A stretch of 64,000 nt of DNA from Ignavibacteriae bacterium HGW-Ignavibacteriae-1 (GTDB taxonomy: Bacteria; Bacteroidota; Ignavibacteria; Kapaibacteriales; UBA2268): positions 1,920 through 65,919 of the forward strand of contig PGYU01000013.1 of the NCBI GenBank assembly GCA_002839825.1, in the 5' to 3' direction. Each line of letters opens with the position of its first letter. Positions within the stretch are counted from its first letter, which is position 1. The position numbers and the translations under genes are program-made. The notes beneath the pieces were generated by a model, which did not search any database, was not told where the DNA came from, and saw only the letters and a program-made list of their open reading frames with translations. Shown in pieces: positions 308 through 64,000 of the stretch.

Positions 308-934
308 ATGGAAAATTTATTCGAGGGTGCACTTAAATTCAGGAGCGAAGACTTTGAATCTCATCGCTCATTGTTCGAATCCTTAGGGAAGTTGCAGCAG
401 CCGCACACCTTGTTCATAGGTTGTTCGGATTCTCGCTTAGTACCAAATTTGATTACACGTTCCCAGCCCGGTGAACTATTCATCGTGCGGAATATCGCCA
501 ATATAGTGCCGATGTACAGGCAATCGGAAGAATATTTAGCTACTACATCGGCAATTGAATTTGCTATTCAAGCATTGGAAATCAAAAAAATTGTAGTTTG
601 TGGTCATTCCAATTGTGGTGGTTGCGCTGCACTTTACTATCCTGTCGAAAAATTAGCTAAGACACCACATACAGCCAAATGGCTCGAACTTGCTCATCCG
701 GTAAAAACTGAAGTTTTGGCTTTGATGGGAGACAGTGTGGATGAATCAGCGCGTGAATGGATGACCGAGCAACTCAATATAGTGCTTCAACTCAAGCACT
801 TAATGACATACCCATTTGTCGAGTCGGGTGTCAAATCCGGCGAAATCACAATACACGGTTGGCATTATATCATCCAAACAGGAGAGGTTTTTAATTATAA
901 TTTCGACCAGAAAGTTTTTGAACTCATAGCTTGA
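308..934 (+). CDS. can: Beta-class carbonic anhydrase
   Basis: Zinc-ligand motifs GCSDSR and GHSNCGG, plus RNIANIV. Confidence 0.95.
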   Translation: MENLFEGALKFRSEDFESHRSLFESLGKLQQPHTLFIGCSDSRLVPNLITRSQPGELFIVRNIANIVPMYRQSEEYLATTSAIEFAIQALEIKKIVVCGHSNCGGCAALYYPVEKLAKTPHTAKWLELAHPVKTEVLALMGDSVDESAREWMTEQLNIVLQLKHLMTYPFVESGVKSGEITIHGWHYIIQTGEVFNYNFDQKVFELIA

Positions 935-1005
935 GGGACTTTTAAGTTTCACTGCGAATTACTAATTACAAAATGCTTTTGATGTTTAATAAAATTGAGG
1001 TGAAT

Positions 1006-1383
1006 ATGGATACTCCGAACTCTGTAACTGATGCAACATTTTTATTCAGACGTGATATTATCAAGAAGATGAATTCCGACATGCGTTTTGTAGGAATCTT
1101 TTACATAATTTATGGTGCCATCACCTGCATAGGAATTATCACAGCTGTAATTGGTGTGCCTTATATCAAAATGGGAATGAGGCTCAGGGAATCTGCCGAC
1201 AGTTTTGACAGATATACAGCGTTAGGCGATGACATGGATTTGAATATGGCTTTGGAGAAGCAACAGCGTTTTTATTTCATCAATAAAATCATGATTATTA
1301 TCGCCCTTGCTTTCGTAGCCTTATATATAATATTTATTATCGTCCTTCTCAGCTTTATGGATTTCTCAAGTCTTATGGCTTAA
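1006..1383 (+). CDS. DUF5362-like small membrane protein
   Basis: MRFVGIFYIIYGAITCIGIITAVIGVP..MGMRLRESADSF pattern with hydrophobic helices. A GAGGTG RBS before ATG 1006 favours this start over 973. Confidence 0.7.
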   Translation: MDTPNSVTDATFLFRRDIIKKMNSDMRFVGIFYIIYGAITCIGIITAVIGVPYIKMGMRLRESADSFDRYTALGDDMDLNMALEKQQRFYFINKIMIIIALAFVALYIIFIIVLLSFMDFSSLMA

Positions 1384-1403
1384 AATACGAATTTGTAAAT
1401 ACG

Positions 1404-1439
1404 AAAAAGGCTGACTTGAGTTATCAAGTCAGCCTTTTT
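1404..1439. terminator. Bidirectional intrinsic terminator (copy 1)
   Basis: Perfect inverted repeat AAAAAGGCTGACTTGA-gtta-TCAAGTCAGCCTTTTT with A/T tails. Confidence 0.9.
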
Positions 1440-1519
1440 GTATGTCTTAAGTCGAAGTGATTATTTCAAAATCATCAATGGCATACGAGTTACTTTGCCG
1501 TTGATTTTTCCAATTACAT
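1405..1519 (+). repeat. Direct repeat, left copy (terminator plus orphan copy of the last 19 codons of the 5316..7481 gene)
   Basis: Aligns without gaps to 5260..5374 with 9 mismatches in 115 nt (manual count). The minus strand reads VIGKINGKVTRMPLMILK-stop. Confidence 0.95.
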
Positions 1520-1647
1520 TTGTAAATTTAGAATGAATTTTGTTATCAAAATTGTCAAACGAGATACTTAGAAATTTGTTAAAAAAAAAATTATGAAAAT
1601 AGTTATACATATAAATAAATTATGTGTACTACATGAGAATTATTTAT

Positions 1648-1655
1648 TATCTTTG
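1648..1655 (+). promoter_or_regulatory. Bacteroidota-type -7 promoter element (TAnnTTTG) upstream of mtrA
   Basis: TATCTTTG about 80 nt upstream of ATG 1734. Confidence 0.5.
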
Positions 1656-1733
1656 CTTTTAAAATTGTTAAAAATCGTTAGGGTTTTCGTTCTTATTATT
1701 AAATTATTATAAATTAATGTGAGGTAACTGCAT

Positions 1734-2660
1734 ATGAAAAAAATGTTGATTACAGTATTTATATTACTTTTATTAGGAATAACGGTACTAATCAGTACTT
1801 CTAATAAAAGTAAATTCGGCACTTCTGCAAAAGAAGTGAATTGGGTTGAACTCAATAGTGGGTTCAAAGAGGCGACCTTTGTTAAGGATAAGAATGTTTG
1901 TTTGTCATGCCATGAAGAATCCGCAAACAAATATAAACATACATCACATAGTCGCGCTTTTGAATTTAGTAAGGAAGGAACTCTGGAGTCAAAAGACTGC
2001 GAATCCTGCCATGGTCCTAGAAGTAAACATATAGAAGACCCGGATGGAAGCCTTACTTTTACTGAAGAACAGTATTCAAAAGTTTGTATGCAGTGCCATC
2101 AGGATAACAGTCGAATGTACTGGAGCGGAAGTATTCATAAGTCATCTGATGTAAATTGCGTAACCTGCCATTCGGTTATGGAACAAAAGAGTGATGAATT
2201 TTTACTCAGCAAGAACAGTCAGACTGAAGTATGCTCTGAATGTCATACCGATGTTAAAGCAAAAATGAACAAGACTTCTCATCATCCGGTAAAAGAAGGA
2301 CTGATGGATTGTTCTTCTTGTCATAATGCTCATGGAGCTCCCGGGACAGGTATGTTAGTTAAAGGTACTATAAATGAAACCTGTTATACTTGTCATCAAG
2401 ACAAAAGAGGACCTTTCACATGGGAACATGCCCCTGTACGCGAAGATTGTTCAAATTGCCACGAGCCACATGGTTCGAATAACAGAAATCTATTAACAAC
2501 ACAAAATGCATCATTATGTGTTAGTTGTCATCAGTATGGCGGTCATATCAATCAGTATCGATACAATCGCGTAAGCACTCCTTACGGAAATGGTTGTGTG
2601 AACTGCCATATGACTGTTCATGGTTCAAATCATCCATCAGGTGCTAAATTTACAAGATAA
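1734..2660 (+). CDS. mtrA: Periplasmic decaheme c-type cytochrome, DmsE/MtrA/MtoA/PioA family
   Basis: Ten CxxCH motifs (CLSCH, CESCH, CMQCH, CVTCH, CSECH, CSSCH, CYTCH, CSNCH, CVSCH, CVNCH), GPFTWEHAPV, C-terminal HGSNHPSG signature and an N-terminal hydrophobic signal. Confidence 0.95.
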   Translation: MKKMLITVFILLLLGITVLISTSNKSKFGTSAKEVNWVELNSGFKEATFVKDKNVCLSCHEESANKYKHTSHSRAFEFSKEGTLESKDCESCHGPRSKHIEDPDGSLTFTEEQYSKVCMQCHQDNSRMYWSGSIHKSSDVNCVTCHSVMEQKSDEFLLSKNSQTEVCSECHTDVKAKMNKTSHHPVKEGLMDCSSCHNAHGAPGTGMLVKGTINETCYTCHQDKRGPFTWEHAPVREDCSNCHEPHGSNNRNLLTTQNASLCVSCHQYGGHINQYRYNRVSTPYGNGCVNCHMTVHGSNHPSGAKFTR

Positions 2661-2673
2661 TAAGGAATAAAAA

Positions 2674-5217
2674 ATGAATACAAATAACACTTGTATATTA
2701 ATAATAATTATTTTATTAATATCATTAGTTTCTGCTAAAAGTCAGGAATCGCTTCAATTTAACGGTCAAATAACTCCGGGAATAGGTTGGATAGACCTAA
2801 ATACAAATTCCAGTAAATTTTATGAATACAGAGATATGAAAGAAGGGTTTTATATACCCGGCGTTCAACTGAATGCTATTCAGCCGAACAGTGGTTTTTA
2901 TCTTCAGTTTGGTGGCAAAAGATTACTTTGGGACGACCAGGTAATCCGTCTTAATCTTGGTGATTACACAAGTTTCTGGAATATATCCATTGACCATAAA
3001 AAGACACCAAACCGCTTAAGTAACAAGGCTATGACACCATATTCTTATCGTGGAGACGGTGTTTTTAATTCTGCAGGATATGTTGGCATCATCAAAGATA
3101 CCATTGATGCAAATGGAACCGTATCATTAGTACCTACGAAAGCACAAATGCATGTTAATGATTCGCTCGTAGCACAATTTCTTGAGAAAAACTTATTGCC
3201 TATAGATTTGGGAACTCAACGTAATAATACTTCTGTTACATTAAATTTGATGCAAACTGAAGAATTAAAATATAGTCTGACTTATATGCACGAAACAAAA
3301 ACAGGTAAAAGAAATAATTATGGCACACTCGGAGACAGACCGCCGAGAACATTAAACGTTCAATTACCTGAACCGGTTGATTACACAGTAAGTGAAGTTC
3401 TCGCTAATGCTGAATATCAGACGAATGGATTTCAGGCAAGATTCAACTACACTTTGTCCAGTTTTTCAAATCAGTTGGATTTTCTGAGATGGGATAATAT
3501 ATTCTTTACTCCGGATACTCCAAACGACTATATTACAACTGTTGCAGGCACACCGCGTAATGCTTCACTTGTTGGTCAGAGAGCTTTGGCACCGGATAAT
3601 ATTTCGCATTATTTTACCCTTGCTACATCAATTATTTTGCCCTTTGAAAGCCGACTTACTGCTACAGGTTCTATTGGAATGATGAGTCAAAATGAAAACT
3701 TACTTCCTTATAGTTATAGCGATCTTGGAGGCGATAGAAATGCTGCTAATGGTGATTCACTTAATTGGAATGACCCGAATAAATTGCCAATTAACACTGC
3801 TAGTGCTAAAATTAATACAATGAGGCTTGATTTCGAGTATTTGATTAATCCTTTTAATGCTCTGAATCTCAAAGCTTATGCACGTTATTATAAATTAGAT
3901 AATCAAACACCTATAAATCAGTGGCGATATGTTACTCAGGACGTTGCGACCACCGACGGCGATGTTTCTTATGTAAATTACAGAAGAAATTTAGCTCATG
4001 GTTTTGATAATATGAAATTCGGTATAGACTTGAGATATTATCTTAATTTTTGGAGAACCTCTATTGGTCTTGGTGCTGTTAGGGAGAATATTAACAGGGA
4101 ATATCGTGAAGCCAATACAGGCGAGAATATAATCAATGCATCTTTGAGAACACGCCCCATGAAGTGGCTTTCATTATCTGCAGGATACTTAATGGGTGAC
4201 CGCCAGATTGACGAATATAATTATATGGTTACTAGTCAGAGCTATTGGTATTCATTTGAAAGAGGAGCTAATCAGGTTGATAACCCACAGTTCCTATTTG
4301 CGAACCATCCTGATTTAAGAAAATATGATGTTTCGGATAGAAAAAGAAATAAAATGAATGTTTCTGCAAATCTGAATTTATTGGATGACTTGGATTTATC
4401 GGCTTCATTTACTAACAAATCAGACGATTTCGATTCGCAGGTTACTCCGGTTGCACCATTTGCAAATACGCTTGTGCCGCTCCCGAACCCTGAAGATAAA
4501 AATGCTATGACACCCGGTAAACAACTTGGACTACTTAAAGACAACCGTCAAAATATATCAATTAATTTACAATATGTAGCGTCAGAGTGGCTTACTTTAT
4601 CTATGTATGCTGACCAAGAAAATGCAAAATATGATATTCGCGGTATGGTTTATAATGAAAACTTAAGAAATCAACCTAGTAGCCAATCAAGTTCGCAACC
4701 AACACAATTAGGACCGTGGAACGATCCAAACAGATTATATATGTCGAACACAGAAGAAATCACAAATTCTATCGGACTTGGTGTTATGATTGAAGTCATT
4801 CCCGGAAAATTAAGATTCTCTACAGATGCTAATGTTTCTATGGCAACTGTTGATATGATATATTCCGGTTATGGCTCTGATCCTTCATATTTGGGTAGAG
4901 ATTGGGAGACTTTTGATTTCGGTTTCAACAGCCCGGGGAAAGCAGAATTTAATCAATACGTTGTAAATGCATCTGTTGAATATAAAGTATTCAACAATTT
5001 AACCTGTGGTTTGCATTTTATGTTCAATCAATATGAAATTACAGACTGGATTCAGGAACCTTCCGGAGCATGGGTAGAATTTGTCGAAAGTGAGAATTTC
5101 CTGCGTGATACATCACGAGATAATCGTTGGGGTAATCGCTTGGTTTCTTTGGGTAGTTACCTTGCACCAGGTTATACCGCTAATGCAGTATTTTTAAATA
5201 TTACCTATATGTTCTAA
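2674..5217 (+). CDS. mtrB: MtrB/PioB-family decaheme-associated outer-membrane beta-barrel
   Basis: Starts 13 nt downstream of the decaheme gene. Has a signal peptide, SSKFYEYRD, LPEPVDY, ALAPDN and LRKYDVSDRKR motifs, and a terminal Phe (NITYMF). Confidence 0.9.
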   Translation: MNTNNTCILIIIILLISLVSAKSQESLQFNGQITPGIGWIDLNTNSSKFYEYRDMKEGFYIPGVQLNAIQPNSGFYLQFGGKRLLWDDQVIRLNLGDYTSFWNISIDHKKTPNRLSNKAMTPYSYRGDGVFNSAGYVGIIKDTIDANGTVSLVPTKAQMHVNDSLVAQFLEKNLLPIDLGTQRNNTSVTLNLMQTEELKYSLTYMHETKTGKRNNYGTLGDRPPRTLNVQLPEPVDYTVSEVLANAEYQTNGFQARFNYTLSSFSNQLDFLRWDNIFFTPDTPNDYITTVAGTPRNASLVGQRALAPDNISHYFTLATSIILPFESRLTATGSIGMMSQNENLLPYSYSDLGGDRNAANGDSLNWNDPNKLPINTASAKINTMRLDFEYLINPFNALNLKAYARYYKLDNQTPINQWRYVTQDVATTDGDVSYVNYRRNLAHGFDNMKFGIDLRYYLNFWRTSIGLGAVRENINREYREANTGENIINASLRTRPMKWLSLSAGYLMGDRQIDEYNYMVTSQSYWYSFERGANQVDNPQFLFANHPDLRKYDVSDRKRNKMNVSANLNLLDDLDLSASFTNKSDDFDSQVTPVAPFANTLVPLPNPEDKNAMTPGKQLGLLKDNRQNISINLQYVASEWLTLSMYADQENAKYDIRGMVYNENLRNQPSSQSSSQPTQLGPWNDPNRLYMSNTEEITNSIGLGVMIEVIPGKLRFSTDANVSMATVDMIYSGYGSDPSYLGRDWETFDFGFNSPGKAEFNQYVVNASVEYKVFNNLTCGLHFMFNQYEITDWIQEPSGAWVEFVESENFLRDTSRDNRWGNRLVSLGSYLAPGYTANAVFLNITYMF

Positions 5218-5259
5218 TCTTACAGATTTGAGATAATTGCAAATAGGAATTTTTCAAAG

Positions 5260-5294
5260 AAAAGGCTGACTCGATTACTCAAGTCAGCCTTTTT
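5260..5294. terminator. Bidirectional intrinsic terminator (copy 2) between convergent mtrB and the T9SS gene
   Basis: AAAAGGCTGACTCGA-ttac-TCAAGTCAGCCTTTTT. Confidence 0.88.
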
Positions 5295-5374
5295 GTATGT
5301 TTAAAGTCGATGTGATTATTTCAAAATCATCAATGGCATACGTGTTACTTTTCCGTTGATTTTTCCAATTACAT
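5260..5374 (+). repeat. Direct repeat, right copy (terminator plus the functional 3' end of 5316..7481)
   Basis: About 92% identical to 1405..1519, offset 3855 nt. Confidence 0.95.
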
Positions 5375-7481
5375 AATAAATACCTGAAGCAACTTCAGCG
5401 CCTTCAAATGAAGCATGGAATTCACCTTCATTCACGAAACCTTGGAATAATTGCTTAACAATCTTACCTTGCGAATCTATAACCATCAAATCAAGCCAAC
5501 CGGCTTTGCCAACATTATAGGTCAAGCGTGTGTTTCCTTCTACCGGATTCGGCGAAGCTTTGATTGATAGTTCAGCATTCCCGGAAGCGCCGGGCTCTAC
5601 GGTTGCCGGGTCGTAACCTGCTCCCATAAATGGAATAGTTGCGTTGCCGTTTACCGGGTCGTTAGATACAATCTTCAAACTAGCAATGTAATTCTTTGCA
5701 AGCAGTGGTGTAAATCTGATTTTCATTTCATGTACATTACCCGGTTCCAAAGTCGGAACAACTTCTGAACCGTCAATAATTTTGAATTGAGCTTTGTTTT
5801 CTGGGTCACCATCCCATTTAGTCTGGAAAATATTTAAATTGTTTTGACCTGAATTTGTGATGTACAATGATTCATCTGCATCAGAACCCATTGCAACGGG
5901 ACCGAAATCAAATTCATCTGTTGAAAATGAAATACCGGAAGTTGCATCTCTCGGGGCGCCCTTCGCTTTGACAATGATAGTTGCCTTTCCTTGGTTATTC
6001 AAACCATTTGAAGTGACTTCTATTCTGCCTTCGTAAGATCCGCCTAATTCATTTGAAGGTGTAAATTTAACCTTTATATATTGAGTGGTGCCGGCTTGGA
6101 CTGTTATCGGTACTTTTACGGTTTCCGTCCATGTAAAATGTCCGTCACCGTCATCCTCGATTTTAAGGGTTTCTATTACCAAAGCAATATTGCCGGTATT
6201 GGTAATAGCTAAATTTCTCGAAAGTGACGAGCCGTATGGTATTGTACCGTAGTCAACAGGTAAGTCGGAAACTTGAATTTTGGGCCCATGAAAGACTTGG
6301 TCGCCACCTTCGCCATATAGGTCAATAGTGATATTGCCATTGATAGCATCAGAAAAGATGTCAAGACTTTCACTATAAGCGCGAGGTTCGGTAGGTGAGA
6401 ATTTCAAGTTGATATAATGAACGTCAAGTGGTTCCAATATTACTTGTCCGCCACCTTCTGTAATAAAGAATGCATCTGGGTCAACAAAATTCGCAATTTC
6501 AGATTTTGTAATAGTAAGTTTTTGGCGTCCATAATTTTGGACAGCTGCGGCAAGAAAGCCGTGTTGGTTTGGTTCGATTTTGCCGAAATCATAGCTGGCA
6601 TTTTCTGCAACGATTTTTTGTTCGGGATGTGGTTGGTCTTGAACGCACCAATAAATTCCGTTAATCAAAGCAACGTTGAAGTGCCATGTGTGCCATGTAT
6701 TTGCAATGTCAAAATTAACAGACCACAAAGCGCAACGTGCTTTTCCATTTTCACGTCTGACACCTGTAAAAACTGAATCTTCCACGGGGTTACCCGCAAA
6801 TTCAGTAACTCTGTCGAATTGTCTTGCCTCAGATCCTTCTTTAATATTGAAAACGTCCACACTTGGGTACCATCTCATCGGGTCTCTGAAACCGCCATTG
6901 TTATGATTATAGCTCATATTGCAGGCTTTATCGAATCCGGCTGAGACCGGGTCGCCTTCGTAGCCCCAAATTTTAAATCCGTGGAATGTGCCGCTTTGAA
7001 GTAATTGTAGTCTTCCGAGATAGTTAATTCCCAAAAAATCTTCTAAGAATTTACGTGATTGAATATCACCACCGGATTTGAATGCTTCGTATAATACAGC
7101 ATTACCGATGATAAGAACTCCTTTTTGAGCGTCGAGCATTTGTTTGATTTTTGTCAATACCTTGATTCCGTCAACCGATGCATCAAGCCCTTTGGTAACT
7201 CCCATTGGGAAAACTGCCACATCGTATTCTGTGATGTCTTTTTCTGCAAAAGTCGCTGCACCGAAGGGACGCTTAACAATATACTTACGCAAGCCGACAT
7301 CTTCAGTCAACTTATCCCAATAGCAAAGGTCAAATAGGTTAGTAATCTCAACATCTCCAGCCATTTGGTCTTCGAAATTGGTGAAAACGATGTAATACTT
7401 TTCGTCAGCTGATTGTGAATAGCCGACAGAGACAGAAAAAATCAGCGACAAAAAAACGAAAATTCTAAAAAAACGTGTCAT
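5316..7481 (-). CDS. Secreted T9SS cargo protein: uncharacterised alpha/beta domain, three choice-of-anchor D (Ig-like) repeats and a C-terminal sorting domain
   Basis: Signal peptide, three repeats starting (Y/V/F)D(F/Y)G with I.N.G...L.I and F(S/T)P, and a CTD of the form ASPNPV...SGIYYV. Confidence 0.8.
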   Translation of the reverse strand: MTRFFRIFVFLSLIFSVSVGYSQSADEKYYIVFTNFEDQMAGDVEITNLFDLCYWDKLTEDVGLRKYIVKRPFGAATFAEKDITEYDVAVFPMGVTKGLDASVDGIKVLTKIKQMLDAQKGVLIIGNAVLYEAFKSGGDIQSRKFLEDFLGINYLGRLQLLQSGTFHGFKIWGYEGDPVSAGFDKACNMSYNHNNGGFRDPMRWYPSVDVFNIKEGSEARQFDRVTEFAGNPVEDSVFTGVRRENGKARCALWSVNFDIANTWHTWHFNVALINGIYWCVQDQPHPEQKIVAENASYDFGKIEPNQHGFLAAAVQNYGRQKLTITKSEIANFVDPDAFFITEGGGQVILEPLDVHYINLKFSPTEPRAYSESLDIFSDAINGNITIDLYGEGGDQVFHGPKIQVSDLPVDYGTIPYGSSLSRNLAITNTGNIALVIETLKIEDDGDGHFTWTETVKVPITVQAGTTQYIKVKFTPSNELGGSYEGRIEVTSNGLNNQGKATIIVKAKGAPRDATSGISFSTDEFDFGPVAMGSDADESLYITNSGQNNLNIFQTKWDGDPENKAQFKIIDGSEVVPTLEPGNVHEMKIRFTPLLAKNYIASLKIVSNDPVNGNATIPFMGAGYDPATVEPGASGNAELSIKASPNPVEGNTRLTYNVGKAGWLDLMVIDSQGKIVKQLFQGFVNEGEFHASFEGAEVASGIYYVIGKINGKVTRMPLMILK

Positions 7482-7581: not shown

Positions 7582-10137
7582 TTACTTAACGACAACAACG
7601 GACATTTGTGTTGTAACGCCGTTGATTTCAGCCATAATATAATATGTTCCGGAAGTTAGGTTACCTGCATTAATCTCGGCATTGAAAGTGCCGGGTGCGA
7701 GGCTTTCTTTTACTATTTGTTGGATTGTTCTGCCACTTGCATCAATCATTTTGATATTGATGAATTGAGCAGCCGCTCCGTTGATTGTATAATTAAACGT
7801 TGAAACAGTATTGACAGGATTTGGTTCTACGCTCATCGAGAAAAGTCCGTCAACTGACACAACTTCGTCAACTGAAGAAGGATTGAAACCAACACCTTCC
7901 AAAGTAATTGTTGCATTTGGAGTATTCGGGTCATTTGATTGTATTTTCAAATTTGCTGTGTAATTTGCAGTAGTTTCAACATTGTCAGGAGAGAATTTAA
8001 CTTCGATAATACGTGTTCCGCCTTCACCTAAAGATGCTAAACTGCCACCTTCGGTAATAGTGAAAGTGCCTTCAGCATTATTCTCTAATTCAATTTTTGT
8101 GAAAGTCAATGGAGCATTACCTACATTTCTGAGTGTAAATGATTTAGTTTCGAATTCGCCCTTGTTCACAGTACCAAAATCAAGTTCTTGAGTGCTCAAA
8201 GTCATAGCAGGTGCTGTACCAGATGGTTCGCCAAACAACCAATCCATGATTTCGGTTGCAAGTTTTGATTTAATTTGGTCATCCGCAGCTTCGAAGTTGA
8301 AACTTAGATAAACAATACGCGAACTACCGACTTGTGATTTAACGCCGGCAATTCCGCCGGTCTGAGTATAATTCAAGATTGGGGTAGCAGATCCGCTTGC
8401 TGTTAAATTTTCCGCAAAATATAATCTTTTGTTTGCAGCAGTTCCGGCACTTTTGTTAACTGAGAAATTCAAGCCATCACCGATTGGGTCACCACTAACA
8501 CCTTGTACATCAGCATATAAATAACCTGTGATTTGACCTTGTGAGTTTGTTTGAACTAATTGCAAAGGATTTCCTGCATAGCCAATACCAAGAGTATTGC
8601 CAAAAAATGCTTTTGCATCTGCGGAACCATCAGTTGTATTGAAAGTAATATGCATATCAAGTTCGGAAGAAAGTAAGATTTTCTTACCGGCATTTACTGC
8701 ACTTTTCAAATAGTTACGAATCAATGTTGCTTCTGCCCAATTTGTAGAGAAAAGTCCGCGAGTATTATAAGAAGACGTAATATGAATAAACTCAAAATTT
8801 CCGGCTTGGTATGCATTCAAAGCAGCATCAATTTTGCTGGTTGGCAATGGCATATAAACAATCTTTTGTCCATAATCCGCATTCATCGCCAATGCTGATT
8901 TGAATAACTCTGAGTTTGGATTCAATCCAAATATAATATGCTTTGTATTATCAGTTAAAATATTGAATTCTGTATTTGTAGCCATTACTTTTAAGCCGTT
9001 CTTAGATACAGGCATTGCTTTTACATTAAAAGTAGCAAAATCAGGTTTGCCTGCAGGAGCATTAAGATTTACCAAAACTTCAGTATTACCTTTTGCAGGA
9101 AGAATAACCTTTGTCTTGCTTAAAGTTGGAGCCCAATTGCTTGGATAATTTGATTCAGTTGCATCTATAGAAAGGTCAACTTCAATTTCAAAATCTTGTG
9201 GATTGCTTACCACAATAGTGTGTGAAAAATCTTGACCTAATGTCATCATTGTGTATTCAAGGTCTGTTTCAAGTTTTGCAAAAGCAGGCATAACTTTGCC
9301 GACTTCGATTGCATTTACAATTGAACCATCAGTCAAAGATGTACCATTTACAACAAATGCTTGCACTAAACCAACAACATACAAATCTTGTGGTTTCCAA
9401 TCAGCAGCTTTTTTGAAACTAAATGTTTGAGAGTATGTTTCACCGGCTTTGACGCTCTTTTGAAATTTTTGTATATCACCATAAGCACCGCCAAAAGCAT
9501 GACGAACGACAGACATGTGTTCGTAGCCAACTATAACTGAGGGTTGTTTGTAGTATGGATTGTTTTCAAATCCCGGACGGTTTGATAAATAATTTTGTTG
9601 ATTCCACTGATTGTTGTTAGGACCGGAGACTCTATCTTCCATTATATATACATTGAAAGCAAATTGACGTGGGTCATTTGTTAGCACTTCAGCTGTAATA
9701 GTAGCTGTAATCATTTCTGTAGTTGCATTGTAAGAATATTCTACATCCAACTCAAATATTGGAGGAGCGTTAAGTCTTGCTATTGCTGCGCCTCTCCAAG
9801 CACCACGGTCTAAAGCCATTGCACCGCTATAAACTGTACGGTCAACGAGACCTTGCGGGTAACCGGTAATACCGAAAGATTGAGCTAATTGTCCTTGCAA
9901 TGGCGATAAAGTCATAGCATCACCATTATGCCATTTCACTCCGATGATTTGGTCAGGGAATTCTTTCAAAACTTCGGAAACTCTGTATGAACCATCCGGA
10001 CACCAACCGCACCAAGCACCTGTATGTTGTTCGATAAGGACTCTTTTTTGTGCCTCGAGAGGCGTAGTAGCCGCAAACAATACGACTAAGCTGAGAATTG
10101 ATAGCATTCTCAATACTTTTGTAAAACGTGTACTCAT
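7582..10137 (-). CDS. Omp28-related thioredoxin-fold protein with a choice-of-anchor D repeat and T9SS sorting domain
   Basis: VLIEQHTGAWCGWCPDG, GYPQGLVDR and YEHMSVVR (Omp28 signatures), LDFGTV repeat, and EPNPV...SGTYYI CTD. Confidence 0.85.
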   Translation of the reverse strand: MSTRFTKVLRMLSILSLVVLFAATTPLEAQKRVLIEQHTGAWCGWCPDGSYRVSEVLKEFPDQIIGVKWHNGDAMTLSPLQGQLAQSFGITGYPQGLVDRTVYSGAMALDRGAWRGAAIARLNAPPIFELDVEYSYNATTEMITATITAEVLTNDPRQFAFNVYIMEDRVSGPNNNQWNQQNYLSNRPGFENNPYYKQPSVIVGYEHMSVVRHAFGGAYGDIQKFQKSVKAGETYSQTFSFKKAADWKPQDLYVVGLVQAFVVNGTSLTDGSIVNAIEVGKVMPAFAKLETDLEYTMMTLGQDFSHTIVVSNPQDFEIEVDLSIDATESNYPSNWAPTLSKTKVILPAKGNTEVLVNLNAPAGKPDFATFNVKAMPVSKNGLKVMATNTEFNILTDNTKHIIFGLNPNSELFKSALAMNADYGQKIVYMPLPTSKIDAALNAYQAGNFEFIHITSSYNTRGLFSTNWAEATLIRNYLKSAVNAGKKILLSSELDMHITFNTTDGSADAKAFFGNTLGIGYAGNPLQLVQTNSQGQITGYLYADVQGVSGDPIGDGLNFSVNKSAGTAANKRLYFAENLTASGSATPILNYTQTGGIAGVKSQVGSSRIVYLSFNFEAADDQIKSKLATEIMDWLFGEPSGTAPAMTLSTQELDFGTVNKGEFETKSFTLRNVGNAPLTFTKIELENNAEGTFTITEGGSLASLGEGGTRIIEVKFSPDNVETTANYTANLKIQSNDPNTPNATITLEGVGFNPSSVDEVVSVDGLFSMSVEPNPVNTVSTFNYTINGAAAQFINIKMIDASGRTIQQIVKESLAPGTFNAEINAGNLTSGTYYIMAEINGVTTQMSVVVVK

Positions 10138-10451
10138 AATATCTCCTAAAAATTTATTTTTATTATAACACTTTATTGTGTACTAACTTGCTTAGTAATA
10201 CTATAACAATTTCAAATACTAAAAAGTTACAAATACTTTGAAAAATGTCTAAAAAATTAACAATTCTTTAAAACTTCCAATCCTAATTTATAAAATTAAA
10301 AAAAAAATCAATATCAACAATATAAATTTCAAAAAAAGATAAACTATTTTGAAAATATTTCTTATATAGACTTCGCCTACTTAGAAAACTAACACTTAAG
10401 TTCACAAAAAGTTTCAATTTGATACACTTTTTTTCTCCAAAATTATTTATC

Positions 10452-15209: not shown

Positions 15210-16514
15210 ATGAAAAGAATCATTTTTGCTATAATATTATTGCTCCCTATCATAGTTCATTCGCAGCAAATGTACACGCTCGAAGATTTGGTTCGTGAAT
15301 CACTTTTGAACAATTATTCGATAAAAATCGGGAAAGTTAGCGAGCAAATCGCAGAGAAAAACGTTAATATCGGCAATGCCGGAATGTTACCACGCATTGA
15401 TATTACTCGTTCGTTCCAATATTCTATGACCGACCTCGAGCTACAATTAGCAACAGGACAGCGAATCGGCAGTGTGGATAATATCACAACAACCAACAAC
15501 GCCGGGTTGCAAGTAGGCTTGACTTTGTTTGACGGGCTTGCGATGTTTGCAAATTTTGACAAATTGAAAGATTTACGCGAAAGGAGCAAAATCGAACTAA
15601 AGATAATGATTGAAACCATGACTCGCGAACTTGCTTTGAATTATTTCAATGCCTTGAAGCAAGAATCAAATATGAAGATTTTGTCCTCAAGTCTTGAATT
15701 GCACGATAGGCGAATCGAAAGAATTAGGAATCGAATGGAATTCGGTGCTGCGTTGAATTTGGAATTGCTGCACGTTCAAGTTGACAAAAACACGGACAGT
15801 TCATCATTCATGCAAACCGAATTGGCGTTTACCAATTTCTTGCGAGCATTGAATTATCTAAGCGGAGCAAACATAATCCGCCAAATTCAACCGGATAGCA
15901 TTGTAAATTTTGCAAATTTACAAAATATTGAAGCGTTGCGAGAATCAATGTATGAAAACAATGCTACGCTAATGCGCGCCGTGATTAATAAGGAGATTTC
16001 CGAAAAGGATAGAAAGCTCGTTTTGGCGCAATTTTACCCGCGAATTACTGCAACTGCAGGGTATAATTATTCTCGCTCGGAATCGGACGCCGGATTTTTC
16101 CTTGTCAATCAATCTGAAGGTTTGGCGGCAGGAATCAATCTGCAATGGAATGTGATGGATGGTTCGAGACATATTATCAATGCACAAAATTCGAAGTTGA
16201 TGATTGAAATTCAGGAAATCAATATCGAAATGGTCCGAGCAAATTTAGACATGTTGCTCCATAACATGTATGAAAATTATTCACGGCGATTGGCTATTTA
16301 CGAACTCGAACAATCGAACATCGCTATTGCCCAAAGCAACTTCGATCGCACAAGCGAGGAATATGATTTGGGGCGTGCGACTTACATTGAGTTTCGCGAA
16401 GCACAGCTAAATCTTATGCGAAGTCAGGAGCGAATCAACAACGCCAAATACGATGCAAAATATGCAGAAATAGAATTGCAAATCCTTACGGGCACATTTC
16501 AAATAGCCGAATAA
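15210..16514 (+). CDS. TolC-family outer-membrane efflux channel
   Basis: Signal peptide, two OEP-like repeats (MLPRIDI, FYPRITA), LFDG motif, and operon position. Confidence 0.9.
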   Translation: MKRIIFAIILLLPIIVHSQQMYTLEDLVRESLLNNYSIKIGKVSEQIAEKNVNIGNAGMLPRIDITRSFQYSMTDLELQLATGQRIGSVDNITTTNNAGLQVGLTLFDGLAMFANFDKLKDLRERSKIELKIMIETMTRELALNYFNALKQESNMKILSSSLELHDRRIERIRNRMEFGAALNLELLHVQVDKNTDSSSFMQTELAFTNFLRALNYLSGANIIRQIQPDSIVNFANLQNIEALRESMYENNATLMRAVINKEISEKDRKLVLAQFYPRITATAGYNYSRSESDAGFFLVNQSEGLAAGINLQWNVMDGSRHIINAQNSKLMIEIQEINIEMVRANLDMLLHNMYENYSRRLAIYELEQSNIAIAQSNFDRTSEEYDLGRATYIEFREAQLNLMRSQERINNAKYDAKYAEIELQILTGTFQIAE

Positions 16515-17238
16515 GATTAACACGGAAAATGAGTTATTAAGTCTGAACAACACAACTTGTTCCGAAATTGAATCTGTTGTTGATGAAATTGCCGAAGCTG
16601 CATTATCAAAAGAAGAAAAATCAAACCACCAAACTAAAAAAAAAGCCCTTCGACGAGAGAAAATCAAAGCGATATTTCGGAAATAAGTGAAATATATAAC
16701 AGAATTTCGCCATCTGTTCAAAAATCAAACAACATGTTGGTTAAAAATCAAACGCTTACGGATATTCTAAAACACCAATACAAGAATTTGCACGTGTTAA
16801 AATTAAGCGCTATTCCACGTAGGATAATGCAGTTAGCCACGACTCAGGCTTCAGAGGGGAATTCATCAGCCAAATTGGTGATGCATCCTAAATCGCTCGG
16901 CACGAAAGTTGTACAAATGAAATAGTGATGAATGTTGTCAAGTTGCAATTGACCGGTGAAAAAAGGGGAGCTCGTAGGCGGTAGAATCAACGATTGGAAT
17001 GGTGGAAGTGAGATTACATAGCAAGGGACCGGAACTCGACAACGTGGAATACAAATTGAAATATATGAATGAGCAAGCTAATTCGGGCAGACACAATCAA
17101 ACGGAAAAGGTCAAAAACAGATTTAACGTACTTACAATAATGGAAAATCATCAGAAAGCAGCGGCAGAAACGACAAATTGGGATGATAACAAGATTTTAC
17201 GACACGATAACGGTACAATAGTTGAAACATATATCTAA
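16515..17238 (+). pseudogene. fliK: Frameshifted, 5'-truncated flagellar hook-length control gene remnant
   Basis: Joining frames across shifts near 16922 and 16978 gives AKLVMHPKSLGTKVVQMK-IVMNVVKLQLTGEKRGARR-AVESTIGMVEVRLHSKGPELDNVEY, which fits the FliK C-terminal domain. It lies directly upstream of flgD, the canonical order. Confidence 0.75.
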
Positions 17239-17259
17239 AAAAGTCATCAGGAGGATGCG

Positions 17260-17949
17260 ATGATTAATGAAATATCCGGTGCAAGCACCGGTTCGAATTC
17301 GGTAAAGAAGACGATTAGGAAAAAGCAATCTGCATTAGGACGCGATGAGTATATGAAGTTGCTCACATTTCAAATGCAAGCGAAAAACCCATTGAAAGCA
17401 TATGACAATCAGGAATTTGCAGCACAATTGGTGCAATTTTCTCAACTCGAACAATTAATAGACATACGCTCATTACTCGAAGAACAAATGCTAAGCAATG
17501 CGATTTTGACACAAACGATGTCTAATTCTGCATTGCCCGGTATGCTCGGTAAAACAGCTAAAGCTTTTACAAATCAAGTTCAAGTGAGTGGTGTCAATGA
17601 CAACATTCTTGGCTTTGAAACACCTTTCAATGTGTCTTACGGCAAGATGACGATTACCGATTCACAAGGTGTCATCGTTAAAGTTATCAAATTGACCGGC
17701 AATATGTTGAATAAAGGCTCACGAATAATTAATTGGGACGGCACAAATTTTAACGGTGATAAAGTGCCGGACGCAGACTATAAATTTACAGTAGAACTCT
17801 TTGAATCAAACGGTAATGGTTTTTCTGCCGAGACATTCACTAAAGGTAAGATTGACGCCGTAAAATTCAAGAGCGACGGTACTAAACTTGTTATCAATGG
17901 AATGGAATTGCCTTTGAATGCTATTTCGGATATCACAACAGACAATTAA
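17260..17949 (+). CDS. flgD: Flagellar hook capping protein FlgD (degenerate, orphan)
   Basis: LGRDEYMKLLTFQMQAKNPL..DNQEFAAQLVQFSQLEQL N-terminus, WDGTNFNGDKVPDADYKF Ig domain, GGAGG RBS. Confidence 0.85.
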   Translation: MINEISGASTGSNSVKKTIRKKQSALGRDEYMKLLTFQMQAKNPLKAYDNQEFAAQLVQFSQLEQLIDIRSLLEEQMLSNAILTQTMSNSALPGMLGKTAKAFTNQVQVSGVNDNILGFETPFNVSYGKMTITDSQGVIVKVIKLTGNMLNKGSRIINWDGTNFNGDKVPDADYKFTVELFESNGNGFSAETFTKGKIDAVKFKSDGTKLVINGMELPLNAISDITTDN

Positions 17950-17971
17950 ATTTGCCAAAATTTCTTAAAAC

Positions 17972-18031
17972 AAAATCCCCCTTAATCCCCCTTTGAAAGG
18001 GGGAAAGCGAGCTTGCGAGCAGGGGGATTTT
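17972..18031. repeat. Nested C/G-rich palindromic REP-like element, probably also a terminator between convergent genes
   Basis: Outer IR AAAATCCCCCT...AGGGGGATTTT encloses TCCCCCTTT-g-AAAGGGGGA. Confidence 0.7.
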
Positions 18032-18056
18032 CATAAATATTTTTAAATCTCTTACA

Positions 18057-18572
18057 TTACCAAGCATATCCCAAAACTACACCCAATCCGAATGGACGAT
18101 ATGTGAGACCGCTAATATCGAGAACATTAAAAGTAAGACTTACATAAGGTTCGACTACAAAACCGCCTTCAAAGACCCATTTGTAAGCAGCTTCTCCGCC
18201 AATACTTAATGAAGTACCACCGCTAAATGTAGAATGCTCAAAACTCCAAAAGCCTAAAGATACAGCCGGTCCAAAGCCGAAACCTCTCAAAGCTTTATCT
18301 TCTTCTTGGAATAAATACCATCTGTATGAACCACCTACACCAAAAGCTGACCAACCCGCAAAACCCCAGTAAAGAGCATCAACTGTGAAAGAATTTTCAG
18401 CAGTCACTTGTTGCTCGTATTTTGCATTGAAAAATCCAAAAGCTAAACCAATCGGGTTAACACCAATGGATTGGTTGTAATTTTTCACAACACGTTGCGC
18501 GAACATATCTTGAACGCTTGCCGTCATCAAGATTATCGCAATTGCAAATATTAAAACGTACAATTTCTTCAT
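18057..18572 (-). CDS. Small outer-membrane beta-barrel, DUF3575-like
   Basis: Signal peptide, GVNPIGL, AKYEQQV, YRWY, GFVVEPY and terminal LGYAW. Confidence 0.7.
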   Translation of the reverse strand: MKKLYVLIFAIAIILMTASVQDMFAQRVVKNYNQSIGVNPIGLAFGFFNAKYEQQVTAENSFTVDALYWGFAGWSAFGVGGSYRWYLFQEEDKALRGFGFGPAVSLGFWSFEHSTFSGGTSLSIGGEAAYKWVFEGGFVVEPYVSLTFNVLDISGLTYRPFGLGVVLGYAW

Positions 18573-18767
18573 AGAATCTCCCCAAAATTATTTTAACAAC
18601 ATTCATTCTATCAAATACAAATTAAAGTTAAACTTTTGATATATCCAAGTTCTATTTGAAAATTTGTTAAGATTTTTCCAGCTTAGTCAAAAGAATTTGT
18701 TATTCTTTAATATTTTCTTATTTTTACTTTATGAAATTCATTAACATTGTAATTTTAGCAACATTTT

Positions 18768-19313
18768 ATGAAGAAACATTTCGTAATTATCGTATTATTG
18801 GCAATCACATTTATTTCAATCAATGATGCAAATGCCCAAAACAGTTTATTTGGTGTAGATTTGGGTTTGGCTCTTCCTGCCGGAGGTTTAAACGCCGGAA
18901 CGGGTTTTGGCATCGAAGCAAAAGGAATTATTCCGATGAAAAAACATCCGTACATCGCTTTCGGAATAGGTGTGGGTTATTATTGGTGGGGTGAGAAAAA
19001 AATCTCCGGATATGACAACAGTCGAAGCAATATACCAATATCGGCAACCTTGATGTTGTTTGTTTCACAGAACCCAATCCGGTTATATTTTGGTTCAGAC
19101 TTTTCGATGAACTTCATGTCTATTACATCTGAATCATGGTTTAGTGGTGTCAAAGGATCCAGAACTGACCAACACTTTGGCTTTGCTCCACTTTTTGGTA
19201 TAATTGCACCTATCGGTGACAACACTAATATCATAGGCACTATGAAGTACAATCTTATCTTAATAGACGAAACTTTTAACTTCCTTTCTTTGCGCGTTGG
19301 CTTAACGTTTTAG
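18768..19313 (+). CDS. Small outer-membrane beta-barrel protein (OmpA-TM/PorT-like)
   Basis: Signal peptide, LGLALPAG, NIPISA and terminal LRVGLTF. Confidence 0.7.
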   Translation: MKKHFVIIVLLAITFISINDANAQNSLFGVDLGLALPAGGLNAGTGFGIEAKGIIPMKKHPYIAFGIGVGYYWWGEKKISGYDNSRSNIPISATLMLFVSQNPIRLYFGSDFSMNFMSITSESWFSGVKGSRTDQHFGFAPLFGIIAPIGDNTNIIGTMKYNLILIDETFNFLSLRVGLTF

Positions 19314-19386
19314 TTAGATGGAATCTCGCGGTGGGTGTAGATATTAATAATTGTGAATAATTTAACCATTTAGATATAGGTGTAAT

Positions 19387-20157
19387 ATGCTTAGAGTTTT
19401 AAAAAATCTTTTAAAGTTTTTATTAGCCACATTGATTTTGATTAGTTGTTCTTCATCAAATTTTTATTACCAACTTTACGAAATTGACTCAAATGACCTG
19501 AAAATTTCACAAGAAAAAGTAGAGTATGAAAATTCTGATGTCATGTTAACATTTGATTTTTGGGCGCAGAATGGTAAATCTAACATACAGATTTACAACA
19601 AGACTGATTATGATGTCATAATTGACTTAGAGCATTCACATCTCATTGTTAATAATTTAGCTGTACCTTATTATGAGGAACGTGTGCATTCTTATAGTGA
19701 TACAAAATCAGAAGAAAAAACAGAAAATACTTCTAAAGGTTCTGCTGTTTCTTCCGAGTATATGTCAACATCTACAGTAGAAATACCTGCAACCAAAAAG
19801 ATTATTATTCCCCCAAAGTCATTTAAGATGATAAATGGCTTAGAACTTAATAATCAGCTTAACATGAATTGCAATTTAATTAGGTATCCAAGTCGAAGGG
19901 AGATTAATACTCAATATTTCCAAGAGGCACATTCGCCATATGTTTATCGTAATATTTTAACATATAGTCTTATGGAATCAGTGCCTGTCACAAAAAAAGT
20001 TGAAAATAGGTTTTGGGTCTCATCTATAACGAATTATCCGATAAATGAATTTATTGGTTGGAGAAAATCAATCATTTGCGAAACAGAATATTCATCATTA
20101 GTTTTCAAGCATCACCTTTCAAGAAGATTTTATATTGAGTATTTAAGAACATACTAA
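19387..20157 (+). CDS. Hypothetical lipoprotein
   Basis: Lipobox LILISC after a hydrophobic stretch; 256-aa ORF. Confidence 0.65.
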   Translation: MLRVLKNLLKFLLATLILISCSSSNFYYQLYEIDSNDLKISQEKVEYENSDVMLTFDFWAQNGKSNIQIYNKTDYDVIIDLEHSHLIVNNLAVPYYEERVHSYSDTKSEEKTENTSKGSAVSSEYMSTSTVEIPATKKIIIPPKSFKMINGLELNNQLNMNCNLIRYPSRREINTQYFQEAHSPYVYRNILTYSLMESVPVTKKVENRFWVSSITNYPINEFIGWRKSIICETEYSSLVFKHHLSRRFYIEYLRTY

Positions 20158-20172
20158 GTTTATACAAAAAAT

Positions 20173-20997
20173 CTAATCATTTACGGCTTTCTTCAAATGC
20201 AAATCCATCTGCGGAAACGGAATAGTCAGCCCTTTCTTAGGGAAAGTGTTGTAAACTTTCTCGTGCATATCGAAATAAATATTCCAATAATCTTCACTTT
20301 TGCACCACACTCTTACAGTGAAATCAACTGAACTATTATTGAGCTTCGATAAAGCAATCAATGGTTCGGGTTCAGGCAGAACTCGGTCATCTTCGGCAAT
20401 TAGGCTCTGAAGAGTCTCGCGTGCTACTTCGGCGCTATCACCGTACGAAATCGAAAAGAGCATATCCACTCTGCGTTCAGTCTCGTGAGTGAAATTTATC
20501 AGTGATGAATTAGCCAAATTTCCGTTCGGCAAAAAGACTACGCGATTATCGAATGTTTTTAATAATGTGTTGAAAATCTGGATTTCGTAAACTGTACCGA
20601 TATATCCCTGAGTTTCGATTACATCGCCTACCCTGAATGGTTTGAACATGAGTATCATTACACCACCGGAAAAATTCTGCAATGTGCCGGATAGCGACAT
20701 CCCAATAGCCAAACCCGCTGCACCCAACAATGCTATAAACGAGGTCATCTCAAATCCGAGCATGGATGCAACTGAAATAATCAACAAGACTCTGAGCAAG
20801 ATATTTAATAATGTTCGCAGAAATGGACGCAAAGACGGGTCAATATGCTTTGCTTCTAAAATTCTGCCTAATGCTTTGCCCACAAATTTTATGAGCCACA
20901 ATCCAATAATTAAAGTCGGAATAGCGACGAGTAATTTCAACCCGTAGATTACTGCAATTTCTGATAAATAATTGACTAAACTGTTAATGTTGTCCAT
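20173..20997 (-). CDS. mscS: Small-conductance mechanosensitive channel MscS
   Basis: GAAGLAIGMSLSGTLQNFSGG, KPFRVGDVI, LPNG and TIPFPQ. Confidence 0.95.
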   Translation of the reverse strand: MDNINSLVNYLSEIAVIYGLKLLVAIPTLIIGLWLIKFVGKALGRILEAKHIDPSLRPFLRTLLNILLRVLLIISVASMLGFEMTSFIALLGAAGLAIGMSLSGTLQNFSGGVMILMFKPFRVGDVIETQGYIGTVYEIQIFNTLLKTFDNRVVFLPNGNLANSSLINFTHETERRVDMLFSISYGDSAEVARETLQSLIAEDDRVLPEPEPLIALSKLNNSSVDFTVRVWCKSEDYWNIYFDMHEKVYNTFPKKGLTIPFPQMDLHLKKAVND

Positions 20998-21177
20998 TTA
21001 CTTCCCGTGATATTTCAAAATATTTTTTATTAAACGATACCTATACAATGTTGCAATATATAGTTTGTGAGGCGAAATGTCAAATCAAAGGTGGACAGTC
21101 TGATAATCTCGGTGGTATCTCAAATCGTTTGACTTCGCAAGAAGAATTAATCACAAAAATGCTCTTCCTCCGAATTT

Positions 21178-63273: not shown

Positions 63274-64000
63274 ATGAAGACAAAGATTGTTACAATGTTA
63301 GCGTATGTAGCCCTGCTGCTGGTCCCTTATTTACTCCATGGCACTGATGAGCCTTCATTATCCGCTCATGATTGTGTTGATATGGAGTCCATCTACAATA
63401 TGTCTGAAGAAGCTAGAGCATATAGCCTTCAGTTGGAGGAATTCACTGCATGGCATATAAAAAATAATAATTCTTTGCTCGAATCTAAAACCATCATCAT
63501 TCCGGTTGTAGTCCATGTCTTTGGGACTGATTTTATAGGTAAAATTGTCAACGACGACATTATCAAGTTAGCTCTCCAAAAAACTAATGAAGATTTCAAG
63601 GGCTTGAATGATGATTTCGATGATGTTGACACACTATATTTAGGAAGACGCGGAGTGTTGAATATCGAATTTCGTTTGGCACGTATAGCTCCGGATGGCG
63701 AATCCACCACAGGAGTATTATATTACGATGACAAAGCAGGACTTGCCAAAACAGATCCGGCTATACATGAATTTATTGAGAGCATTGCATGGGACAATTA
63801 TAAATACATGAATGTTTATATTTGCTCTGATTTAATGGATGATGGTGCTACAAATAATTCAGGCTATGCTTGGTACCCTAACAAATATATGTCCGACCTT
63901 GGTATTGCTCGAGTGGTTTATAATGGCAGATATCTCTACGGGAATATTGATAAGGAATTTTCTTCTGTATTGACCCATGAATTCGGACACTGGCTGAATT
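63274..64000 (+). CDS. M43 (ulilysin/pappalysin-like) zinc metalloprotease, truncated by window end
   Basis: Not in the ORF track; translated by hand. MKTKIVTML signal, IIIPVVVHV, IEFRLA..PDG, WDNYKYMNVY and LTHEFGHWLN zinc motif. Confidence 0.9.
   Translation, partial: MKTKIVTMLAYVALLLVPYLLHGTDEPSLSAHDCVDMESIYNMSEEARAYSLQLEEFTAWHIKNNNSLLESKTIIIPVVVHVFGTDFIGKIVNDDIIKLALQKTNEDFKGLNDDFDDVDTLYLGRRGVLNIEFRLARIAPDGESTTGVLYYDDKAGLAKTDPAIHEFIESIAWDNYKYMNVYICSDLMDDGATNNSGYAWYPNKYMSDLGIARVVYNGRYLYGNIDKEFSSVLTHEFGHWLN

Follow-up and report, generated by a model that had tools for sequence, protein, structure and literature searches.

Within a window of 64,000 nucleotides (nt) from Ignavibacteriae bacterium HGW-Ignavibacteriae-1, which is the whole stretch of DNA analyzed here, two neighboring genes encode an MtrA-like decaheme c-type cytochrome and an MtrB/PioB-like outer-membrane porin and are enclosed by two direct repeats of 115 nt. 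Taken together, the data indicate that this mtrAB unit is probably an old, fixed insertion that was acquired horizontally by a groundwater lineage. The source genome (G000; 3,227,209-base assembly of 43 contigs; window at G000:C23:1920-65919) was compared with those of three congeners, G001, G002 and G003, in all of which the insertion site is empty. The nearest of them is G003, whose flanks are about 88% identical to the window (G002, 82-83%; G001, about 70%) and three of whose proteins carry the NCBI label 'Candidatus Kapabacteria bacterium'.

Repeats, empty site and cargo of the mtrAB insertion

The repeats form one family of two gapless direct copies that are 92% identical and lie 3855 nt apart (Table 1). 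They agree at 106 of 115 positions, with 49 matches out of 56 in the non-coding part (1405-1460) and 57 out of 59 in the coding part, and the longest identical blocks between them measure 31, 22 and 22 nt. A MAFFT alignment of the surroundings showed that similarity stops sharply past 1519 and 5374. Minus-strand translation of both copies gave VIGKINGKVTRMPLMILK followed by a stop, that is, 18 identical amino acids, which form the end of a cargo gene of the type IX secretion system (T9SS). The two coding differences, at 1488 and 1497, fall on third codon positions and are synonymous (ACT/ACA for threonine, GGC/GGA for glycine). Upstream of the remnant in the left copy the frame is interrupted by stops. 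Hairpins were predicted in both copies and on both strands (-19.6 to -27.8 kcal/mol, z-scores of -5.1 to -9.5); a terminator pattern scan called the left hairpin only. An earlier note on this DNA had described gapless 115-bp direct repeats with nine mismatches, each holding a bidirectional terminator and the end of the T9SS gene (19 codons with the stop counted), and only synonymous glycine and threonine differences between them, and all of this was borne out.

Gapped blastn extended the similarity leftward (1383-1519 against 5241-5374, 138 columns, 89.9% identity). In an anchored-alignment test this left extension reached P=0.029 and any extension to the right P=0.42, so that the left edge of the repeat is soft and the right edge sharp. 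The 115-mer occurs in two full-length copies in the whole assembly and its next match is 17 nt long, for which reason a dispersed repeat was rejected. A likeness to the coding part of the repeat (73% over 37 nt) was also seen at 7619-7655, in the 3′-terminal part of the following T9SS gene (7582-10137). It is a conserved sorting-domain end and not a third repeat copy.

Queries made from the flanks matched one contig in each of the three congeners. In G003 and G002 the two flank matches overlap by 113 nt, corresponding to a single repeat copy, and a five-way alignment of the region showed the DUF5362 stop, the hairpin and the T9SS 3′ end in unbroken succession in both genomes. In G001 the flank matches are 155 nt apart and the site is likewise empty. 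The empty site with one repeat copy that the earlier note had proposed to look for in relatives was thus found in G003 and G002, and the order DUF5362-terminator-T9SS gene, which recombination between the repeats was said to restore, equals the arrangement of these two genomes. Moreover, the absence from three of three congeners supports a lineage-specific insertion and with it the notion of the cassette as a discrete unit. Two further candidates were rejected: a remnant of tandem paralogues, because the empty site is contiguous in the three congeners, and a block of foreign allele adjoining the right copy, because sliding identity to G003 and G002 is unbroken at the repeat. Within the T9SS gene, 5560-5710 is 67-77% identical to G003 and 75-85% to G002, the reverse of the flanks, and may represent a recombination mosaic.

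The cassette interior (1520-5259) comprises 3740 nt and holds no credible gene besides mtrA and mtrB, which are separated by 13 nt; the non-coding DNA beside them amounts to 214 nt and 42 nt. That only a promoter region, mtrA and mtrB lie between the repeats, as had been claimed, is correct for the genes, and the 214-nt leader is presumed to act as promoter. The related claim that the cassette has no integrase likewise held. MtrA scored 244.6 bits with the DmsE/MtrA family model TIGR03508 (cut-off 192.2), has 10 CXXCH motifs and a hydrophobic N-terminus, and matched chain A of the solved structure 6r2q with E=1.6e-64. MtrB scored 269.8 bits with PF11854 (MtrB_PioB; cut-off 23). As a single sequence it matched no solved chain, and a profile of its family built from 17 sequences matched 6r2q_B with E=5.3e-15. 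We take 6r2q to be the Shewanella MtrCAB complex, although the molecule names in the file do not say so; the local PDB copy names chain A 'Cystathionine beta-synthase', which looks like a naming slip. MtrB is single in the G000 genome, in which no member of the MtrC/OmcA family exceeded the cut-off (TIGR03507, best score 21 bits against 209.3). With one MtrB and no MtrC/OmcA gene, the pair falls into the two-component MtoAB/PioAB style. Furthermore, bidirectional terminators bound the unit on both sides, which makes it a self-contained transcription unit after insertion.

In codon usage, mtrA and mtrB do not stand out within G000 (percentiles 73 and 68). Their GC contents at third codon positions are on the low side (percentiles 8 and 7), but a native T9SS gene lies at percentile 5. 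A comparison of GC content and codon usage inside and outside the cassette, suggested earlier as a mark of foreign origin, therefore does not discriminate.

Table 1. Features of the mtrAB locus and its flanks (positions in the window)
Feature	Position	Strand	Basis
Beta-class carbonic anhydrase gene, native left flank	308..934	+	PF00484, 166 bits; 96.6% amino acid identity to G003 orthologue
DUF5362 gene, native left neighbor	973..1383	+	PF17319, 91.7 bits; orthologue beside empty site in G003 and G002
Possible left-repeat extension (spacer past DUF5362 stop)	1383..1404	.	Gapped blastn, 89.9% of 138; P=0.029
Bidirectional intrinsic terminator hairpin, now ends DUF5362	1404..1439	.	16-pair stem and T run; -27.8/-26.4 kcal/mol
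Left direct repeat: terminator, spacer, displaced T9SS gene 3′ end	1405..1519	.	Repeat search, MAFFT
Longest identical block, 31 nt, partner 5312-5342	1457..1487	.	Logan k=31 contigs break here
Remnant: last 18 codons and stop of T9SS cargo gene, no gene body	1461..1519	-	Translation equals right copy
AT-rich leader, about 24-29% GC, presumed promoter region	1520..1733	+	Composition; unique in genome
mtrA-like gene, periplasmic decaheme c-type cytochrome, 308 amino acids	1734..2660	+	TIGR03508, 10 CXXCH, 6r2q_A
mtrB/pioB-like gene, outer-membrane beta-barrel porin, 847 amino acids	2674..5217	+	PF11854; C-terminus ...TYMF
Right non-coding cassette end; 5241-5259 may be repeat extension	5218..5259	.	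Unique in genome
Right direct repeat: terminator, spacer, working T9SS gene 3′ end	5260..5374	.	Repeat search, MAFFT
Bidirectional terminator hairpin, now ends mtrB and T9SS gene	5260..5294	.	-19.6/-23.3 kcal/mol
T9SS cargo gene (choice-of-anchor D, Por_Secre_tail), 721 amino acids, native right neighbor; first of two T9SS cargo genes in the right flank	5316..7481	-	90.3% amino acid identity to 721-amino-acid G003 orthologue

Age of the duplication and route of entry

Judged from the divergence of its repeats, the mtrAB insertion is old and not recent. The left and right copies match G003 at 95 and 96 of the 115 positions and G002 at 95 and 94, and both share derived states in the coding part against these two genomes. 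Since each copy has its best match in the other and not in G003, the duplication postdates the G003 split. The seven differences in the 56 non-coding positions correspond to a Jukes-Cantor distance of about 0.14; for four flanking genes compared between G000 and G003, synonymous divergence (dS) is 0.34-0.67, and the comparison places the event roughly a quarter of the way back to the split. By parsimony, three of the nine differences are derived in the left copy (1417, 1420 and 1446), three in the right copy (1423, 1488 and 1497) and three are ambiguous. Given the shared derived states, an allele imported from outside would have had to stem from a lineage more closely related than G003, the nearest congener sampled.

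We propose that the mtrA-mtrB unit was gained after separation from the G003 lineage and would have landed where the DUF5362 terminator meets the 3′ end of the T9SS cargo gene. In the process a stretch of 115 nt (perhaps 137 nt), comprising the terminator, the last 18 codons and the stop, would have become duplicated. As a consequence, the T9SS gene would have stayed whole, DUF5362 would have retained a terminator and mtrAB would have gained one. For the route of entry we tentatively put forward, as the most likely of several, a non-replicating circular DNA that carried a homologous stretch beside mtrAB and was integrated by one host RecA-type crossover. Such a crossover would require no integrase, and it would duplicate the homology by construction. 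Two features of the sequence may hint faintly at this route: the switch between left-derived and right-derived states occurs around the 31-nt identical block, the stretch in which one would look for a crossover, and the diverged 22-nt extension would fit a fast-evolving spacer of the donor. Duplication during break repair would be an alternative route and nearly as likely. Precise loss through recombination of the repeats would be possible in principle.

Several observations weigh against parts of this interpretation. A crossover needs a donor in which mtrAB already stood beside the same sequence; none was sampled, and the nearest MtrB is 58% identical. The pattern of differences between the copies does not separate an imported allele from a duplication in place, and the data fit imported and duplicated resident sequence equally well. 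The switch of derived states around the 31-nt block gave a value of about 0.17 in a Fisher test for a mosaic, calculated by hand, and the 22-nt extension is far more diverged than the repeat core and may be due to chance (P=0.029). G000:C23 and G003:C11 are syntenic over about 30 kb, with five insertions or deletions, of which mtrAB is the only one flanked by repeats, so that repeats are not the general mode of gene gain in this lineage. With the stricter model TIGR03509, MtrB scored 184.2 and remained below the cut-off of 240.05. Finally, electron transport by MtrAB across the outer membrane is a function predicted from the genes.

In the alternative closest to the crossover, foreign DNA would have been caught at the terminator hairpin, in a staggered break or a stalled fork, and fill-in or template switching would have copied the resident 115 nt without importing an allele. 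The copies share derived states and are mutual closest relatives, their derived changes are distributed 3:3 as independent drift predicts, and the left repeat edge lies at the foot of a strong hairpin; moreover, no donor with the same locus would be needed. However, the former coding part of the left copy shows no polarized change in spite of its lost constraint, and among the characterized mechanisms in bacteria we know of none by which a 3.7-kb insert would acquire a 115-nt duplication of its target. We hold a duplication in place to be rather unlikely as an explanation in its own right. Transposons, insertion sequences and miniature inverted-repeat transposable elements were excluded, as the cassette has no inverted ends and the duplication measures 115 nt: a search for terminal inverted repeats at the cassette ends was negative (P=0.82), and the non-coding ends are unique in the genome. 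An integrase might also have placed an island at the T9SS gene 3′ end, the repeats being attL and attR and the integrase either lost since or acting from elsewhere. Integrase-borne islands, such as those at ssrA in Dehalococcoides (PMC3146451), do typically have direct repeats that restore the target's 3′ end, and such repeats are present here. What speaks against such a decayed or cis-mobilizable element is that the cassette has no recombinase of its own; that the 214 and 42 nt of non-coding DNA would demand a near-exact deletion; that the four repeat-flanked loci of G000 described below share no core above shuffled sequences; and that the site is empty, with no element, in three of three congeners. 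The G000 assembly contains two tyrosine recombinase genes (PF00589), both on contig C38 and thus outside the cassette contig, and no serine recombinase (PF00239), but assemblies of metagenome-assembled genomes (MAGs) often miss mobile DNA, and such an absence is no proof. An integrase-borne origin appears improbable.

The earlier note had gone further and described mtrAB as a switchable module that could be lost, circularized or amplified by recombination between the repeats and, in the form considered here, regained by re-integration. The geometry would permit scar-free loss, the product being the empty site of G003 and G002; identical blocks of 31, 22 and 22 nt persist; and a 197-nt repeat pair on contig C18 brackets different genes in G000 and G003. 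The proposed check for junctions and copy number was carried out on Logan contigs of four public sequencing runs from one study (X1-X4), two of which may be the source of the assembly and are then not independent of it; no RNA run was among the runs listed for this stretch. Deletion or circle joints were not listed in the contigs of the four runs, which drop rare variants and give no view of rare forms. Depth was even, with 6.2-9.7 in the cassette and 9.0-9.3 in the flanks in X1 and 8.0-8.9 and 8.6-8.9 in X2, and no part of the stretch was without cover in either run. An identical MtrB is encoded on a contig of 226,977 bases and on one of 66.6 kb; its position on the long contig and a cassette depth close to that of the flanks indicate the integrated form and not a circle. 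Furthermore, the repeats have diverged at nine of 115 positions (8%; 12.5% in the non-coding part) with no sign of homogenization, and the event is about a quarter as old as the G003 split. The absence of joints in contigs of a single study is a weak argument; together with the long contigs and the repeat divergence it leaves the switch unsupported, and we regard it as distinctly improbable. A loose end at 1575 in X3 and X4 was considered as the cassette in another context and rejected as a chance match. Its 30-nt consensus is missing from G000-G003 and was found in an unrelated Bacteroidetes MAG, which shares with the window only an A-rich 31-nt stretch (1575-1605, 93.5%).

Two remaining explanations have very little in their favor. 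Precise loss from an ancestor of the genus that possessed mtrAB would leave the observed single-copy site in the other three species, but it demands three losses, or one gain plus losses, it does not agree with copies that are closer to each other than to G003, and the family is absent from 250 other genomes of the order; we consider it highly improbable. That the left copy or a join was mis-assembled has a negligible probability. The k=31 contigs do break in the 31-nt block and, taken by themselves, fit both the integrated form and a circle next to an empty site. Breaks occur only there, however, and four contig types in each of two runs tie the flanks to their own copy-specific variants with 0 mismatches; the copies also differ at nine positions, depths are even, and MtrB lies on the two long contigs.

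Distribution of mtrAB and its predicted role

Among relatives the cargo is rare. MtrB was found in none of 60 relatives (36 of the same family, 24 of other families of the order), PF11854 in none of 250 other genomes of the order and MtrA in none of the three congeners. In a sample of the phylum, one of 400 other genomes encodes MtrB (G084, 53% identity), as an mtrA-mtrB pair in an unrelated context. The best homologues among 5.8 billion proteins are 58% identical; the named top matches are MAGs of Bacteroidota or Ignavibacteriales, and after them come Desulfuromonadales (about 40%) and Acidobacteriota (about 35%). A quick IQ-TREE reconstruction, which took in 49 of the 120 matches listed, placed MtrB within a clade labeled as Fibrobacteres-Chlorobi-Bacteroidetes (FCB) group with an SH-aLRT support of 96, on a terminal branch of 0.6 compared with a median of 0.18. 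A search of genome contigs with the single MtrB protein revealed no close relatives, and the exact 28-nt core of the repeat had no match in metagenome contigs. The donor lineage of mtrAB lies outside the sampled genomes. A literature search on Kapabacteria with multiheme cytochromes or MtrB listed 10 articles, none of which names Kapabacteria.

Related mtrAB pairs at 23 metagenome loci (25-59% identity) keep the order mtrA-mtrB. At seven of them (L027, L029-L033 and L038) the pair is divergent from an AraC-family regulator gene, and most of these continue with a one-heme gene of 165 amino acids and genes for TauE, DoxX, a Fer4_5 membrane protein, DUF302 and DsrE. These surroundings look like a sulfur-linked context. 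The G000 cassette has no genes for an AraC regulator, TauE, DoxX or Fer4_5. At L038 a piece of the 5′ end of the araC-like gene (5649-5736) recurs right after mtrB (9678-9766; 81% of 89 nt), and at L031 two DUF302 paralogues (1209-1699 and 9735-10223; 492 nt, 89.6%) flank 8.5 kb that include mtrAB. The locus with the closest MtrB (L025, 58%) has a gene for a 516-amino-acid protein with one CXXCH upstream of mtrA (4212-5762). At the C-terminus this protein is similar (34% over 62 amino acids) to the T9SS sorting domain in the 721-amino-acid protein of the window, and it could be a secreted partner.

A multiheme network is already resident in G000, which has 17 open reading frames with at least two CXXCH motifs, among them several 13-heme proteins. 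A cluster on contig C8 (G000:C8:71134-82434) encodes a 943-amino-acid protein that combines 19 CXXCH motifs with a formate-dehydrogenase-gamma-like (FdnI-like) cytochrome b domain, two 13-heme proteins and a 730-amino-acid fusion of PhsC-like and NrfH-like parts. For the 19-heme protein, G003 and G002 have counterparts of 95-96% identity, and a search of G001 at E<=1e-20 gave none. From this gene content it appears that quinol-linked and periplasmic cytochromes predate mtrAB and that MtrAB would add an outer-membrane route. The product would probably plug into the prior multiheme network of the genus and, like MtoAB/PioAB, carry electrons through the outer membrane, with a decaheme cytochrome threaded through an outer-membrane porin. 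Flow outward (mineral reduction) or inward (uptake) would both be possible.

Other repeat-flanked loci and comparison with known systems

Among 29 repeat pairs examined in G000, four have the form of a remnant plus an intact gene 3′ end. On contig C18 a direct repeat of 197 nt (93%; G000:C18:61547-61743 and 63408-63604, L056 2548-2744 and 4409-4605) is a duplication of the final 64 codons of a Na/Pi-cotransporter gene and encloses two genes of no known family (256 and 169 amino acids). The same pair in G003:C12 (L062 2657-2852 and 6607-6802) encloses genes for a 413-amino-acid protein, a DUF6958 protein and a T9SS beta-helix protein of 626 amino acids; the slot is fixed and its cargo has changed. 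Sharply bounded repeats with a gene 3′ end also occur at G000:C43:136544-139632 (70 nt, 93%) and G000:C12:39000-40450 (about 185 nt, 91%). In both regions several nested insertions distinguish G000 from G003 and G002, and a 4.8-kb stretch of the C43 region is missing from G003 and G002. It is conceivable, but a long shot, that the genus moves small gene sets as recombinase-free cassettes bracketed by 70-200-nt copies of resident 3′ ends, which would loop out through RecA and re-enter the single-copy site of a relative as circles, mtrAB and C18 being examples. The other four insertions or deletions in the synteny around mtrAB have no flanking repeats. Three are confined to G003 (9.6, 2.0 and 2.3 kb) and one to G000 (1.5 kb), within 16514-21146 of the window (G000:C23:18433-23065).

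The locus offers a base-exact view of a genome before and after the entry of a conduit for extracellular electron transfer. Two genes and a 214-nt leader would have sufficed, which defines a minimal portable conduit unit. The recipient had a rich multiheme network, and the 19-heme fusion is present in two of three sister species, all three of which are devoid of mtrAB. G000 and G003 thus constitute a natural near-isogenic pair in which to ask what the conduit adds. In addition, an MtoAB/PioAB-like pair is placed in a lineage labeled Kapabacteria, in an order where the family was otherwise not found (none of 250 genomes).

Horizontal movement of mtr clusters, recognized from broken synteny, has already been published. 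Mtr genes interrupt otherwise syntenic regions when compared with relatives lacking them, and the cluster was proposed to move as one package (Baker et al. 2022, mBio, PMC8805035). The argument there, as far as the available portion goes, is built on transposases, tRNA genes and inversions, and the main text does not contain 'direct repeat', 'Bacteroid' or 'Ignavibacteri'. Compared with those mtrCAB transfers, the G000 insertion has base-exact breakpoints, no mtrC and no mobility gene.

Recombinase-free insertion between repeats has a laboratory precedent. In E. coli, a circularized, non-replicating plasmid that integrated by a single crossover ended up between duplications of 109-950 bp (Amarir-Bouhram et al. 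2011, PLoS One, PMC3240628). As in this Campbell-type integration, the G000 insert lies between direct duplications at a site that is single-copy in relatives, the 115-137 nt fall within the range of 109-950 bp, and no dedicated recombinase is involved. In contrast to the laboratory plasmid, we infer the circle, the closing junction and the donor.

In Dehalococcoides, respiration islands that include an integration module are inserted at ssrA, the one conserved RNA gene that they target (McMurdie et al. 2011, PMC3146451). They resemble the G000 insertion in being an acquired respiratory module at the 3′ end of a resident gene, and for island integration the G000 case is of moderate interest. 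G000, however, has no integrase at the locus, and its target is the 3′ end of a protein gene plus a terminator. Of the features of integrative islands, direct repeats that rebuild the target are thus present and an own recombinase is absent. Cis-mobilizable elements (CIMEs) are att-flanked stretches of DNA without recombination genes that rely on a related element with an integrase occupying the same att site. They share with the G000 insertion a repeat-flanked cargo that lacks its own recombinase, but no integrase-bearing element occupies the site in three of three congeners, and recombinases are few in G000.

With regard to the cargo, G000 has the same adjacent order of a DmsE/MtrA decaheme gene (10 CXXCH) and an MtrB/PioB barrel gene as MtoAB/PioAB and the MtrAB core of Shewanella MtrCAB. 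In contrast to Shewanella MtrCAB, it has no gene of the MtrC/OmcA family over the cut-off, and its MtrB comprises 847 amino acids, compared with 695 in the solved barrel chain of 6r2q. Unlike the hosts of MtoAB, PioAB and MtrCAB, its host belongs to the Bacteroidota group and uses a T9SS. An MtoAB/PioAB-like conduit that was acquired horizontally and is bounded by a target-derived duplication would represent an unusually clean case of known event types.

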